From an uncultured archaeon (lineage in GTDB: Archaea > EX4484-52 > JAADEF01), in the NCBI GenBank assembly GCA_964407715.1, contig CAYOWP010000001.1, forward strand, positions 62,652 through 126,651: DNA of 64,000 nt. The letters run 5' to 3'. A model generated the notes under the pieces. That model was given only the letters and a program-made list of their open reading frames with translations. It was not told where the DNA came from and ran no database searches. The position numbers and the translations under genes were made by a program. Shown here in pieces: positions 3,992-56,100 of this stretch. The stretch's first letter is position 1. Every line of letters starts with the position of its first letter.

Positions 3992-4503
3992 ATGGTGCGA
4001 ATTTTGATTTTTGGAGATAGTATAGCATATGGAGCTTGTGATAAAGAGGGAGGATGGGTTCAAAGGTTAAGAAAATTTTTTGATGAAAATTATGAAGATT
4101 ATCTAATTTATAATTTAAGTATTTCTGGCGATACTACAGAGGAGTTAATTAAAAGATTTGAATTTGAAGCAAAACAACGATTAAAGGAAAAAGATGAAAC
4201 AATTATAATTTTTGCTATTGGGATAAATGATTCTCAGTTTGTTCATAGTAAAAATAAAAATAGAATAGCATTGGAAAAATTCAAAGAAAATCTTCGAAAA
4301 TTAATTCAACTTGCTAAGAAATTTTCCTCAAAAATTATTTTTGTTGGTTTGACTCCTGTTGATGAAACAAAAACAACACCAATCATTTGGGATATAAATA
4401 AATTATACAAAAATGAATACATTCAAAAATAAATTCAGAAGGGCATCAGAAAATTTTTGAAATTGTAAAGGATTTCATGGTTGAAAGATTACTTTCTTCA
4501 TAA
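3992..4503 (+). pseudogene. SGNH/GDSL hydrolase with an internal deletion and frameshift
   Basis: FGDS and IGIND blocks present; stop at 4432; C-terminal NSEGHQKIFEIVKDF...* resumes in another frame (4432-4503); catalytic DxxH missing. Confidence 0.75.
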
Positions 4504-4585
4504 TCGCTATGAAGTGTTAAACCGCTATAAGTGCTATTTGCGTGTTATGTTTCCGCTTAACAATAGAGAATTATTGGACAATGCC
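4504..4585. mobile_element. MITE-family right end (solo TIR plus arm)
   Basis: 4521-4585 is a near-identical reverse complement of 17472-17536 and ends in GAATTATTGGACAATGCC. Confidence 0.8.
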
Positions 4586-13904: not shown

Positions 13905-14565
13905 TTTAACCTTAAAAAGCGATTTGAAACAGATAACCTTTTTAAAGCAGTTAGCTGCTTAAAAAACCTTTGTGTTATTGAGATTTTCCCGTTAACAAAT
14001 TAAAAATTTTTAATAAAAATGGTTAACGGGAAGATATCACTATCACAAGCACATTACAGCATGCTACCCTCTTAAAAAAGGTTAGCTGCTTGAAAACGCT
14101 AAATGAAAGGGTTATGCTTCCCGTTAACAAATTATTTAAAAAATAAAAAATGGTTAACGGGAGGAAATCGCTATCATATAAAGTTTTGCAAGCATGCTAA
14201 CCTCTACAAAAGGTTAGCTGCTTCTTAACCGCTTTAGAAAGGTTAGCTGCTTCAATACGCCAAATGAAAGGGTTATGCTTCCCGTTAACCAATTATTTTA
14301 AAAATAAAAAATGGTTAACGGGAGGAAATCGCTTTCTCAAGGCACATCGCAGCATGCTAACCTCTTTTCAGGTTAGCTGCTTCAAACCGCTCGAGAAAAG
14401 GAGCTATGCTTTGATGCGCTATTGATAAGGTATGCTTCCCATTAACAATTTTTTAAATAATTTGGTTAACATGAGACCTCTCTTATCAATAGCACATTAA
14501 AGCATGGCATCCTTTCTTGAGCGGTTTGAAGCAGCTAATCTTTTAACCCTTAATTTGGTTAATAT
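13905..14565. repeat. Tandem array of phased palindromic modules
   Basis: Units TGGTTAACGGGA...CTTCCC(G/A)TTAAC at 14020-14130, 14151-14291 and 14312-14448 with central GCATGCTAACC-N-GGTTAGCTGC; AT linkers; partial units at both ends. Confidence 0.92.
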
Positions 14566-16637: not shown

Positions 16638-17390
16638 TCATATTTTACTGAATAACTCTCTAAGAATAAAGTACTTTTTGTTTATCTCCTTATTGCTCTT
16701 TCTTATTTTTTCTAAGCGTTTTTCCAGTTCCTTCACTTTCTCTTCAATCTTTGCCGGATGCTTTCTGATGTCCTTCTCTATGGCTTTTATAATTTTTATC
16801 TCTTTAATGATTTTTTCCTTTTCCATTTCAAATTCTTTAAATGCATTTTCTAAGCTTTCCAACTTTTTCATTCTTTTGTCAATGATATCTGTAACGTTTT
16901 TAAGATCCTTCTCCAACTCTGCCTCTTCTTCTTTTATCTTATTGAATACCTCAAGGATCTCTTTTTCCTTCTCTCTTATTCTTTTTAACAAATCCTCCAT
17001 TTCCTCCCTTTTTTTCAAGTCTCTCTCTAACACATTTTCCAATTCTTTAAGTATCTCTATTTCCTTTTTCAATACCTTTTCCTTTTCTTGAACATTATAC
17101 TCAATCTCTTTAATCGTTTTTTCACTGTCATCATATAATTTTTGAGTTACTTCCTTTGATTTTTCTTCTACATCATGCGGGAGAGTTACATAAATTCTTC
17201 CAAAGGAGTATTCCAAGTTCACTAAGCCCTCTCCTTCCAATGCCTTAGCCCATTTCTCCACTACCTCTATTGGAAGAGAGAGAGCATTGGATACTTCTTT
17301 AATACTTACTTTACCTTTTGTGGAAACAATCTCTAAGAATTTATCTATATCGCTTCCTTTTTTTATCTCCTCTAATATCTCTTTAGCCAT
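16638..17390 (-). CDS. N-terminal wHTH plus long coiled-coil protein
   Basis: VSIKEVSNALSLPIEVVEKWAKALEGEGLV then E/K heptads. Confidence 0.6.
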   Translation of the reverse strand: MAKEILEEIKKGSDIDKFLEIVSTKGKVSIKEVSNALSLPIEVVEKWAKALEGEGLVNLEYSFGRIYVTLPHDVEEKSKEVTQKLYDDSEKTIKEIEYNVQEKEKVLKKEIEILKELENVLERDLKKREEMEDLLKRIREKEKEILEVFNKIKEEEAELEKDLKNVTDIIDKRMKKLESLENAFKEFEMEKEKIIKEIKIIKAIEKDIRKHPAKIEEKVKELEKRLEKIRKSNKEINKKYFILRELFSKI

Positions 17391-17471
17391 ATATTATCCA
17401 ACCTCTTTATGATAATAAATTAAATATTAAATTTGAAATTTTTTATATCTTTATGGTTCTAATGGCTTTAT

Positions 17472-17619
17472 GGCATTGTCCAATAATTCTTTATTGTTAA
17501 GCGGAAACTTAACGCGCAAATAGCACTTATAGCAGTAATCGCATTAGCTCCATAAGGTTAGCTTTCTCTGATGCGCTTCTTTGAAATGTTACTTTCATAG
17601 GGAATTATTGGACAACACC
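17472..17619. mobile_element. Complete 148-bp MITE with 18-bp TIRs and 9-bp TSD
   Basis: Left GGCATTGTCCAATAATTC, right GAATTATTGGACAACACC; flanks TGGCTTTAT (17463-17471) and CGGCTTTAT (17620-17628). Confidence 0.88.
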
Positions 17620-18135
17620 CGGCTTTATTTCTATCTTAGTGTTGCATCCTTTGACATCTTCTCCAAATAAATATCCCAACCATAAACGAGGATATCCGAG
17701 ATAAGGTATTCTATAGATTACTTTTCCCTCTACATTCTCAATTGGTATTAGCCAAGGGTCAGGTTGAGAGTTATTATCTCCCCATGCAACCACATATTTA
17801 TGCGAATCTTCAAGTAATTTCTTATATGCTCTATGAACTATCAACCTATCCTGAAGAGGCTCATAATATACAATAATTGTAGAATTTGGATCCTTCCATT
17901 TTTCATTAGCAACAATCTCATCCCACGAGACACCTTTAACAATGATTACATCTCCTCTCTCCAATGTTGGTACCATTGAACAAGACACCACAACTAACAT
18001 TGGATAATCTGTTCCCAAAGCCAATCCCAAACCTTTATAAAGACAAACTGCTAAAATAAAAGCGATTATTACATCCTTAAGGTTTTCCCAAACATATGCT
18101 TTTAGAAACCTTATGATCTTTTTTCTTTCTGACAT
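17605..18135 (-). CDS. sec11: Signal peptidase I, archaeal/Sec11 type (S26B)
   Basis: VVSCSMVPTLERGD, IVHR, WGDNN, GKV, IPYLG; last four codons and stop come from the MITE. Confidence 0.88.
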   Translation of the reverse strand: MSERKKIIRFLKAYVWENLKDVIIAFILAVCLYKGLGLALGTDYPMLVVVSCSMVPTLERGDVIIVKGVSWDEIVANEKWKDPNSTIIVYYEPLQDRLIVHRAYKKLLEDSHKYVVAWGDNNSQPDPWLIPIENVEGKVIYRIPYLGYPRLWLGYLFGEDVKGCNTKIEIKPGVVQ

Positions 18136-18240
18136 AATTTTACATATGGTGTAGAATATATTTAAAACTTTTAAATAACCTAAATATTTTTAAATTTTTA
18201 TTTTCTTAAATTATATATCGATGTCAAAATGGTGATTTTA

Positions 18241-19835: not shown

Positions 19836-19862
19836 GGCATTATCCAATACTTCTTTATTGTT
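19836..19862. mobile_element. MITE remnant (left TIR only)
   Basis: GGCATTATCCAATACTTCTTTATTGTT flanked by direct AAATGAG (19829-19835 and 19863-19869). Confidence 0.65.
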
Positions 19863-20045
19863 AAATGAGATCTATAAGATAACATTATTTTCATTTTATA
19901 TTCTCCATTATATATTTTTAAGTATATTAACATAATTATGTTTAATCACTACAATATATATTTTGAAATGTTAAAATCACTTAAAAGTAGTGAAAAGGAA
20001 TTTTGTGGCTCCTTTATCTTTCATATGTTTATGCGAACAAAAATT

Positions 20046-20590
20046 CAGTTAACGAAAAAATGTGCTTCTTGATATCTCTCAGGTTTGCAGCATGGTAATC
20101 TCAATAAAGGGTTAGCTGCTTTCTAACCGCTTCGGAAAGGTTAGTATGTTCTGATATGCTATTGATAAAGTACTCTTCCTGTTAACCAATATTTTATTTT
20201 GAACCCTCTCGCAGCATACTACCCTCTACAAAAGCCATCAATGTGTTCGCATAAGGTTTATTATGCGAATTTTATTACTTGGTTAAGGGAAAGCATAGCC
20301 ATATCCAAAAACCACTTTCAAGCAGCTAACCCTTTATTGAGGTTACCATGCAGCAATGTGGTTGTGAAAGTGATTTCCTCCCATTAACCATTTTTATTTT
20401 GGTTAACGGGCAGCATAACCTATTCATTCAGCATATCGAAGCAGCTAACCTTCTTAAGCGGTTAGTATGCTGCAATGTGCCTTAAAGAGGTGATATCCTC
20501 CCGTTAACCTTTTATTTTAAATAAAAATGGTTAAGGGGAAGAATCCCTTCTTAAAAAAAGTGTATCGAAGCAGCTAACCTTTATAGAAGG
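20046..20590. repeat. Array of phased palindromic modules surrounding the dif-like site
   Basis: Unit 20046-20188 and partial 20211-20234 in one orientation; 20280-20390, 20400-20510 and half unit 20528-20590 in the other. Confidence 0.9.
20244..20271. other. Candidate dif (Xer recombination) site
   Basis: TGTTCGCATAA-GGTTTA-TTATGCGAATT: 11-6-11 layout, symmetric arms resembling the E. coli dif XerC arm GGTGCGCATAA; xerA is 10 kb away. Confidence 0.8.
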
Positions 20591-45675: not shown

Positions 45676-45778
45676 ATCATTTGTTAAGCTAAAACATAAC
45701 CTCATAGCAGTAAACTATTTGAATAGGGTTTTGCTTCCCGTTAACAAAATTTCTCAAAATATATTATTGGGCAATGCC
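45676..45778. mobile_element. MITE with eroded left TIR and perfect 9-bp TSD
   Basis: TTGAAATCT at 45667-45675 and 45779-45787; right end TTATTGGGCAATGCC; internal GCTTCCCGTTAAC. Confidence 0.8.
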
Positions 45779-50380: not shown

Positions 50381-50420
50381 ACAAAACCCGTTTTAAAAAA
50401 GTTTAATATAAGTTCTGGAT

Positions 50421-50905
50421 TGGTTAATGGGAAGCATAACCCATCAAGAGAGCATATCAAAGCAGCTAACCTTTTGTAGAGGTTAGCATGCTGTAATATG
50501 CTATTGAAAAGGAGATTTCTTCCCGTTAACCATTCATTGAATAAATAAAGAATGGTTAACGGGAAGTATAGCCATATCCAGAGCATATCAAAGCAGCTAA
50601 CCTTTTGTAGAGGTTAGCATGCTATAATTTGGCTTTGAAAAGCGATTTCTTCCCGTTAACCATTTTTTATTTAAATAATAAAAATTGGTTAAGGGGAAGA
50701 ATACCTTCTTTAAAAAGCATATCAAAGCAGCTAACCTTTTGTAGAGGATTAGCATACTGTAATGTGGAGTTATGAAGGCAACATCTTCCTGTTAACCATT
50801 TGTCTCGCAGCAGCTAACCTCCTATAGAGGTTAAGAAGCAACTAACCTTTTAAAGCTGTTACTATACTGTAAAACCTTTATAGGAAGGATATCTTTCTGT
50901 TAACT
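50421..50905. repeat. Tandem array of phased palindromic modules
   Basis: Units 50421-50532, 50553-50662 and 50686-50798 (period 132-133 bp) plus partial 50807-50905; central GCAGCTAACCTTTTGTAGAGG(A)TTAGCAT in all three. Confidence 0.95.
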
Positions 50906-53154: not shown

Positions 53155-56100
53155 TTATATAGAATACAAATCCTCATCCATCTCTATTTTAGGTTTTGAA
53201 GAAGAATATTTGATCACAACATACACTACTATCACCATTAAAATTACCAAGAATAAGAAAATAGCCAAATATTTGCCATAAGGTGGTTTTCTCTCTGGCA
53301 TAGAAAGAAATTCCTTATAATATTGCAACTCATCTATGCCTTGTTTATATACATCTAAATCTCCAACAGATGCTATAGAGAGATATTCTTCATAGAAATT
53401 ACATATATTTTCATAATCAAGCACATCTTGTCCACTAAGATGGCTTCTTATCTTTTTTACATTTTCTTCATTTACGCATATCTCATTATATAAGGACTCA
53501 AACCTCTCCTTTAGCTCTTCATATGTAGAAAGATAATATTGCGTATAATTGCATCTTTTAAGTTCTCCTCTATAAGTAGTTGCGTTCGCATAAAGCTCAT
53601 TTAAGGTTTCTCTTGATTCAATATCTATCAAATCTATTGTTCTTCTTTTTTGTTTAGCGCTTGGCAACCAGACTTCACATATCTCTGAGATATCCAAATT
53701 CTCACAACTTTTATTATTAAGAATATCACAAAGATACTCTATCTCATCCAATATCTCATCCAATTCCATCAATTTATCTTGAAGAGGTGATTCTTCAACT
53801 TTCTTTATGCTTGCTAATGTTTCATAAGTTAATATCACAAATGAAACATCATATTTTGTACGTAACAAAATGAATGTAAGTGTCACATTTTTACCGCATT
53901 TTCCTAAGATGTCATTTCTTATCTCAATTGGTATTCTATAATTCCCAGGTTCTGATATTACATATAACTCTTTATTTTCATATATTGTGTGAGGACTACA
54001 CATCTCAGATGATATCCTAATCTTAAGTCCTATTGTGCCCATATTATCAACATTGGTAAGCATATTTAAGGTTCCTGAACCAATGCCTTTATTTTTATCA
54101 TATAAAATAACTCTATCATCTAATGATAAAGATATATCCCTATTTGCTGAAATTATTTTTTTACGTATTGTAAAATTAATTAATGTTTTATCACCATACC
54201 CTATCGTTACTTTATTGCTTGAATTCAAATTCGCTCCAAATAGATATAGGGTTAGCATATATTCTTCTCCTGAAGAGAACATATTCTCGTTGTTATCTTT
54301 ATCTAATACAGGTTTAATATTTATCATGGCAGGATTATTATTTATTAATACCTTAAAATAGTCCATATTAAGATTTTGATCCCCTATATTTTTTAGATAA
54401 AGGTTTATTTTCTGAATATCATATATGTTATCAAACTCAATATCTATAATTTCGTTTTTCCTTAGTTTTCTCTTAAAACCTCTATCAGAAATATATGCTG
54501 TTAAGTGCATTCCGCTTAATCTTTCAAGAATCTCTATGCACTTTTCAAATACAGCAAGATAGTCATTTATTGTGTACTCAAAAGAAAGGCAATTAAATCC
54601 ATACTCAAAGATATAATTTGATGGTATCTCAAAAGTGGTATTTATAGAGTACATATCATTATGTGATGTATAAGAAACCTCAACACTCTCTTTATCTTTT
54701 AGAGAAGTGTATATTTTTGCATCTTCAAGAGATCCTGTTATTGGCTGTGAAAATAAGCTAATAACCTCTGCTCCCTCTCCCTTAAAGAATTCAGTAGAAG
54801 AGATATAAGTATATGAAGGTATAATCATAAAATCAAGGGGGATAGAAATTCTTTTATGTATGATTTCTCCATTTACATTTCCATCTATCTCCAAATTAAG
54901 CATAGGAGTGGTTAAAGAGCAAGTGATATTTGGAGGCAATCTAATCAAATATCCCGTAATTCTTCCATTATTGTCTATCATATAATTCTCGCTAGTTATT
55001 TTTTCTATAGAAAGATCATCAATGTTGCAATTATTATCTCCTATATTTAGAATCTCAACAGTAAGGGAATTATCATATACAACATTGCCATGTTTATCTT
55101 CAAGATAAGGAACAAAAAAAGCCAGAATATCACTACCCGCAAGATATGCCTCTGGGTGTATATGCTCCACATACTCTCTAACTGATGTGATGGTATAATT
55201 TAACTTAACATTGTATGCAAATTCATCAGAGATTTCAATCTCTCTTGAGGTATTATATTCTATTATATCTCCATATCCATTCCTATATTTTACCACATAT
55301 ACAATACCTATTGATTTACCAGAAAATGATTTATCTATCGCATACACCATTTCATCATCATTTTGTGGATTATAAGGTATTGTACTTAATATTTGTCCAT
55401 TATCCCTATCAACAATCTGAAAATATCTCTCCTCTATTGTTCCGCTATCCCCAATATCATATTCATCATAATTTTCCATTTTTATTGTTAAGTTCTGCCC
55501 ATAATAATATCTTCCATCCAAATCTTTAATACCCTCTATTATCAAATCTCCAGAATATACTTTTGGATAAAACAATACAGATTTTGATATACAATTATTT
55601 GATGTATCACCTCTACAATACTCTGCTAAAGATACTCCTTGAGGTAATTCTCCCATCACAATTAAAGGAGATATGAGCAATGATTTCTTTGGAGTTCCTG
55701 TTCGTGGGATAGCAATATCAAACAAAAAGCACGTTCTATCTTCACATAAATTCTCAGAAATTTCTGATGATATGAAGTGAAGCGAATACGTCTCTCTCAT
55801 ATATAATATGCTCATCGGATTTTCTAATGATGAAAGATATATTGGATGTTGGGTATTGATATCAATCACATATAATTTAAGCAACATATTTTCTCCAGGT
55901 GATTTTGAGGTATAGTAAACAGAATCTGCATAACCTCCAGATAATCCGCTATATTTTTTGATGATGTCAGAGCTTTCAAATAAAATATCATAATAATTGT
56001 TTTCTGATAACACATAATCAAGTTTATCTTTTAAGTTCACTCCACAATAAAGGTATATGATGCCGGTACTCACTATATTCTTTGTATCAACACAATATAA

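Follow-up and report, generated by a model that had tools for sequence, protein, structure and literature searches.

The gene for archaeal signal peptidase I in the window, the 64,000-nucleotide stretch of DNA analyzed here, has its last codons inside a small repeat with inverted ends. The most convincing reading, in which we place good confidence, is that a non-autonomous miniature inverted-repeat transposable element (MITE) of 148 bp inserted into the end of this gene, with an enzyme of the IS903 group as the likeliest mover. The insertion replaced a three-residue tail with a four-residue tail supplied by the element, which belongs to a family that is old and has left 9-bp scars throughout the very small genome of this vent archaeon.

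The element occupies positions 17472–17619 of the window, is non-coding, folds back on itself, and was delimited by sequence inspection and a repeat search. Its left terminal inverted repeat (TIR), GGCATTGTCCAATAATTC, is 18 bp long (17472–17489, plus strand) and recurs as 37 exact copies in the genome, and the right TIR (17602–17619, minus strand) reads GGTGTTGTCCAATAATTC and agrees with the left one at 16/18 positions (2 mismatches). On either side lies one copy of a 9-bp target site duplication (TSD), TGGCTTTAT on the left (17463–17471, recognized by sequence inspection) and CGGCTTTAT on the right (17620–17628), the latter encoding residues I-K-P of the present protein. The two copies are alike at 8/9 positions, with the consensus (T/C)GGCTTTAT, and the repeat search returned GGCTTTAT as an exact 8-nt direct repeat with a spacing of 157 that flanks the 148-bp element, together with the inverted arms. 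Coordinates and letters of the element, its TIRs, and its 9-bp flanking repeat were all confirmed as they had been given in the initial annotation.

Folded as single-stranded DNA, the element reaches −22.4 kcal/mol (z = −4.28), and 0 of 200 shuffled sequences were as stable. No match was found among 4227 Rfam families at E ≤ 1, and the only open reading frame (ORF) of at least 40 aa that overlaps the element is the end of the signal peptidase gene. TIR matches are strongly overrepresented in the window (8 at up to 3 mismatches, compared with 0.15 expected), a count of 8 being reached in 0 of 100 shuffles. Shorter than approximately 500 bp, Rfam-negative, and multi-copy, with TIRs, a 9-bp TSD, and no transposase found in the genome, the element at 17472–17619 shows all the tested hallmarks of a MITE, the class to which it had been assigned at the outset.

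The affected gene (17605–18135, minus strand) encodes a Sec11-type protein of 176 aa that was assigned by its match to the TIGR02228 profile, sigpep_I_arch (84.5 bits, cut-off 51.85), over residues 22–150; Pfam returned no match for this ORF. The protein currently ends in ...KIEIKPGVVQ*, and its last four codons and stop (17605–17607) lie within the right TIR, which provides the codons GGT GTT GTC CAA TAA. The displaced former 3′ end lies downstream of the element, at 17451–17462 on the minus strand, as codons for L-E-P followed by the stop TAA. Scripted removal of the element together with either flank copy yielded a 175-aa ORF ending in ...KIEIKPLEP*, exactly the restoration of EIKPLEP* in place of EIKPGVVQ* that had been predicted.

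The end of the ORF has therefore been replaced as described, but the phrase used in the initial annotation, that the element “rewrote the C-terminus,” is too large for a change from LEP to GVVQ in a tail that lies beyond the profile match and is different in every relative. Because the profile match stops at residue 150 and the tails of 29 orthologues from relatives all differ, the exchange is most likely neutral; the peptidase domain is untouched. An orthologue ending in GVVQ without the element would have spoken against an insertion, and 0 of the 29 orthologues has this ending.

A corresponding empty site, for which sec11 of relatives had been proposed as the place to look, was seen neither in the 41 other genomes of the order nor in metagenome contigs nor in two public runs. 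Within the order, the closest orthologue is 63% identical and carries a different tail, ...RIEVNIND*, and a protein-guided scan of metagenome contigs recovered two loci only, at 38% identity. The two runs that hold the locus are X1, which may be the source sample, and X2, which comes from another sample and study. In both runs, contigs extend from within the element into the gene; record 14 of X2 covers 17486–18161 at 5 differences. No joint that skips the element was found in the contigs of either run; these contigs end within the repeat, and rare variants would not be visible in them. The element is thus present in two independent samples. As a separate observation, the signal peptidase gene is immediately followed downstream by a 250-aa Lys/Glu-rich ORF (16638–17390, minus strand) that contains K/E-rich repeats and appears coiled-coil-like by eye; Pfam gave no match for this ORF at E ≤ 0.001.

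The copy in the signal peptidase gene is one of many. The genome, represented by an 898,521-bp assembly that is 92% complete, contains 100 matches to the TIR at up to 2 mismatches, compared with 0 for the reversed control. Paired copies were defined by plus and minus TIR ends no more than 450 bp apart, each with up to 3 mismatches; 45 such elements were obtained, and their lengths cluster at approximately 135–160 bp and 247–263 bp. Conservation within the element is highest in the TIRs, inverted symmetry extends approximately 65 nt inward from each end in many copies, and the 250-bp form consists of half an element fused to a complete short one via an internal TIR-like site. No paired TIR ends with a gene in between were found in this genome. 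Solo or truncated MITE ends, with one TIR or with a partner that is too decayed, were noted in the window at 4476–4585, 19836–19864, 31079–31232, and 45679–45778.

Flanks of the paired copies match over 9 bp, with at most 1 mismatch, in 19 of 45 cases, whereas 4 of 45 match at 10 bp and 0–2 at other lengths. When left and right flanks taken from different elements were compared, 0 of 1980 comparisons matched at 9 bp. A clean 9-bp TSD is missing from 26 of the 45 copies, and the mismatches of the 8/9 TSDs are scattered over all positions, as expected from age. The difference between 19/45 and 0/1980 indicates that TIR-bearing copies moved by staggered-cut transposition; TSD enrichment at other copies, whose absence the initial annotation had named as grounds for abandoning its reading, is clearly present. 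In one nested insertion, a 302-bp copy sits within the TIR of another copy and is bounded by a perfect 9-bp TSD, GCATTGTCT (contig C13, 20753–21054, with the locus extending to 21071).

These data also bear on the view that no insertion occurred, that is, that the ORF always ended where it does and that the element is adjacent by chance or its flank match coincidental. Such a view would account for a flank match of 8/9 rather than 9/9 and for the lack of an empty site among the relatives, contigs, and runs searched. We nevertheless consider it extremely improbable, since excision restores an in-frame stop three codons on, the 8/9 match falls at the exact TSD length of the family, for which the control rate is 0/1980, and the last four codons are TIR sequence common to approximately 100 other sites.

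It is important to note that the TIR-bearing elements are part of a wider repeat family. By blastn, this family comprises 183 clusters that span 40.1 kb, or 4.5% of the genome, with a TIR in 69 of the clusters and none in the other 114; the motif GTTAACGGGAAG lies near a TIR in 18 of its 290 matches. In the window, TIR-less clusters of the same palindromic modules are found at 13927–14382, 20279–20543, 50408–50758, and 63834–63998. Because a TIR is present in only 69 of the 183 clusters, the transposition scars speak for the TIR-bearing subset and not for the TIR-less arrays. The claim that the repeat family had directly been shown to move by DDE transposition is accordingly upheld in one part: TIR-bearing copies did move with staggered cuts, but the DDE step is read from the scars, which are not direct evidence of it, and the 114 TIR-less clusters are beyond the reach of that evidence.

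The same modules give some standing to a spread that did not involve a DDE enzyme, either by a REP/RAYT-type single-strand HUH mechanism or by recombination of palindromic modules, with the flanking repeat being incidental. The element interior is indeed built from palindromic modules that also form the TIR-less arrays (114/183 clusters, with GTTAACGGGAAG near a TIR in 18/290 matches). HUH/RAYT systems, however, make no target duplication, in contrast to the 9-bp TSD of 19/45 TIR-bounded copies. In addition, no other part of the element is as well conserved as the inverted ends, which have 37 exact copies; no Y1_Tnp (PF01797) was found in the genome, and the element does not classify as a REP/RAYT member. 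A non-DDE route is therefore very improbable, and staggered-cut transposition is retained as the mode of movement of the TIR-bearing copies.

The family shows the signs of age. Full-length copies reach at most 93.2% identity to one another, and the signal peptidase copy is 80.8% identical to its closest full-length match, its top partial match being 92% over 111 nt (contig C1, position 10227). The family is old, and it is probably inactive or immobile now. TIR matches number 0 in the genome from the same genus; of the other 41 genomes in the order, 3 have a single match each. With a 250-bp copy as a DNA query, 98 matches were obtained in its own genome; of the 12 nearest relatives, 2 gave one marginal match each, of 30 nt. 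Among the genomes searched, the MITE family is confined to this species.

Within the genome, effects on genes are scarce. Of all 45 paired elements, the signal peptidase copy alone supplies the stop of a clear ORF of at least 90 aa; a second ORF with a stop from a MITE (114 aa, contig C15) is of doubtful reality, and seven further overlaps between ORFs and MITEs are upstream extensions to alternative start codons. This scarcity of gene-ending copies fits selection against gene insertions in a compact genome, and the sole insertion tolerated within a gene altered a non-conserved tail. Small repeats that alter or extend the 3′ ends of protein genes have been described in bacteria, including RUP, BOX, BRE, Correia, and ERIC elements, as listed in the accessible portion of Delihas 2011 (PMC3184786). 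The signal peptidase insertion resembles the cases in that portion (PMC3184786) in that a small non-coding repeat alters the end of a gene, and it differs from them in its archaeal host and in the exchange of three residues for four.

To assign a likely mover, the TIR was compared with the ends of known insertion sequences. IS903B is an element of enterobacteria that belongs to the IS903 group of the IS5 family. In the passages available from PMC10569121, its IRL and IRR both start with GGCTTTGTTGAATAAATC and are accompanied by a 9-bp direct repeat. The left TIR matches this printed repeat at 14/18 positions, so that IS903/IS903B shares with the MITE an 18-bp end starting with GGC, 14/18 identity, and a 9-bp TSD; the IS903 repeat given in the initial annotation, its TSD length, and the 14/18 agreement were thereby traced to print and recomputed (PMC10569121). 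Among shuffled TIRs, 0 of 200,000 reached 14/18 to IS903B, and 28 of 200,000 did so with the leading GG fixed. The corresponding value for ISKpn26, of the IS5 group, is 9/18.

Another DDE family that makes 9-bp duplications, such as IS1, IS4/IS10-like, or IS256-like elements, might have moved the MITE instead. No parent element was found, and parentage therefore rests on an 18-nt resemblance and on TSD length; according to the same passages, ISKpn14 of the IS1 family likewise has a 9-bp direct repeat and GGT ends (PMC10569121), and the TIRs of archaeal IS903-type elements reach just 8–11/18 to the MITE TIR. The TIR resemblance nonetheless favors IS903B, at 14/18, over ISKpn14, at 7–9/18, and the shuffling result points in the same direction. 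IS903-type elements with 9-bp TSDs also occur in the same order, and a search of this genome for IS1 and IS256 transposases gave no match. On balance, a mover from another DDE family is unlikely, although it is the most credible of the competing explanations, and an IS903-group enzyme remains the preferred one.

A transposase of the expected type was sought at several levels. Profile searches of the 92%-complete genome detected no PF01609, PF13737, NF033579, Y1_Tnp (PF01797), IS1, or IS256 transposase, and seven IS903-type proteins from relatives, used as tblastn queries against the genome, reached an E value of 0.84 at best. The IS5/IS903-group transposase bounded by this TIR, for which the initial annotation had suggested a search, was thus found in the genome neither by profiles nor by tblastn; because the assembly is 92% complete, its absence is not proven. 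In the 42 genomes of the order, no gene was found enclosed by a pair of these TIRs.

Wider scans yielded no such element among the matches listed. An exact 17-mer scan of all species, from which the records of this genome were left out, produced at least 88 single matches at scattered sites, the majority of them in genomes of bacteria, and among the matches listed none had a second end (up to 5 mismatches) in the right orientation and at the right distance. A 16-mer scan of viral contigs produced at least 18 single matches. Two viral loci with a second weak TIR match were rejected as elements, as they lie inside genes of a phage of 44–45% GC and their ends face outward; similarly, a TIR-like match near a contig end in genome G003 was set aside, its adjoining sequence being unrelated and devoid of a transposase-like ORF. 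Across 401 genomes of a Woesearchaeota-type DPANN phylum, 52 single TIR matches were recorded (one of them in an unpublished genome, G376), compared with 8 for the reversed control, and none of these genomes was multi-copy or contained a TIR pair enclosing a gene.

As none of these searches uncovered a transposase flanked by this TIR, both DDE transposition and IS903-group parentage are inferences from the scars, and the element is filed as IS903-like rather than as a derivative proven to come from the IS903 group. Descent from the IS903 group of the IS5 family is well supported and is the explanation that the data favor most, as distinct from a demonstration. In the ISfinder classification, IS903-group elements typically measure approximately 1.05 kb. 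The MITE, at 148 bp, is unlike IS903 in this respect, as well as in having no transposase gene, a DPANN archaeal host, and an interior of palindromic modules unrelated to IS903.

Potential relatives of the mover are present in related archaea. NF033579-type transposase matches occur in 14 of the 42 genomes of the order and in 0 of 4 other genomes of the same family. Three complete elements illustrate the type: L149 in genome G035 (1083 bp, ends GGTGCCGTCTCATAAC and GGTGTTGTCTCAATAC, TSD AAGATTTGG at 9/9), L195 in G010 (942 bp, TSD 9/9), and L196 in G011 (1097 bp, TSD 8/9). The L149 transposase scores 181.6 bits against NF033579 (cut-off 140) and also matches PF01609 and PF13737; NF033579 and PF13737 are what we take to be marks of the IS903 group in the ISfinder classification. 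These archaeal elements are like the MITE in their GGC- or GGT-initial ends and 9-bp TSDs, and the first nine bases of the right end of L149, GGTGTTGTC, are identical to those of the right TIR of the signal peptidase copy. They are 942–1097 bp long and have NF033579/PF13737 transposases. They are unlike the MITE in showing no shared subterminal sequence and in their TIRs, which agree with the MITE TIR at 8–11/18 positions in an ungapped comparison whose script the end pair of L149 was too dissimilar to pass.

Based on these data, a simple model would suggest the following history. A transposase supplied in trans would have recognized the 18-bp inverted ends, the target would have been cut with a 9-bp stagger, and repair would have duplicated (T/C)GGCTTTAT. 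The TIR, read inward as GGN NTT GTC CAA TAA, would then have caused the ORF to end in G-V-V-Q-stop instead of L-E-P-stop. The mover would most likely have been an IS5-family enzyme of the IS903 group (NF033579 or DDE_Tnp_1_5 type), as carried by the insertion sequences of approximately 1 kb in related archaea, and it would since have been lost from this assembly. The family itself would have undergone a burst in this species lineage and then decayed.

The scar in the signal peptidase gene is real but ordinary, the trace of a known kind of selfish DNA. High MITE densities reported for DPANN archaea include 146 per Mb in Altiarchaeum and 105 per Mb in a Woesearchaea genome, according to the accessible text of a prokaryotic MITE census (PMC11602168), compared with at least 45 paired copies in 0.9 Mb here; the present family is not described in that text. 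One review (PMC8944449) had nothing on IS5 subgroups, and the passages found in another source (PMC13343696) made no specific mention of IS5 or MITEs in DPANN. What the analysis provides is a clean, quantified MITE family in a very small DPANN genome, with 9-bp scars, IS903-like ends, and no surviving transposase, restricted to one species. Annotators should treat the end of this gene and the many TIR-bearing repeats as mobile-element scars and not as functional sequence, the gene in question being that for signal peptidase I.

The insertion itself opens no new biological question, and a more interesting lead is offered by MITE-bounded toxin–antitoxin composites. Two such loci, each a ParE toxin and antitoxin between MITEs, lie outside the window, on contig C7 of genome G000 (54162–55078, corresponding to L214 163–1079) and on contig C15 (14144–15152). 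The cassette combines an 85-aa ParE-family toxin (PF05016, 47.3 bits) with a 63-aa ORF upstream that overlaps it by 8 nt; the PF05016 match was obtained with the full ParE-like ORF, the first 50 residues alone giving no Pfam match. The two cassettes share 78.6% identity over 512 nt and have opposite orientations. In both composites, each of the two inner TIR ends directly adjoins the 9-mer AACATCAAA, so that the inner junctions are the same, and an outer 8-bp direct repeat, TCAGTTCT, is found at the C7 composite and none at the C15 composite. This arrangement suggests that MITE pairs may once have moved a toxin–antitoxin cassette as a composite transposon that was copied as a unit.

A more far-reaching and frankly speculative scenario, which we regard as possible without favoring it, would connect these observations. 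In this scenario, a single IS903-type element would have entered a genome-reduced DPANN lineage after its split from the nearest sequenced relative and would have spawned first the MITEs and then the TIR-less arrays, which now account for 4.5% of the genome; MITE pairs acting as composites would have copied the ParE cassette, and the transposase would then have been lost. If true, the repeats would constitute a fossil record of a full burst-and-extinction cycle in a 0.9-Mb symbiont genome. Finally, contigs C8 and C9 carry the same two TIR matches, in both cases 20,194 bp apart and on opposite strands; given this matching spacing, the two contigs may overlap as reverse complements, reflecting redundancy in the assembly.
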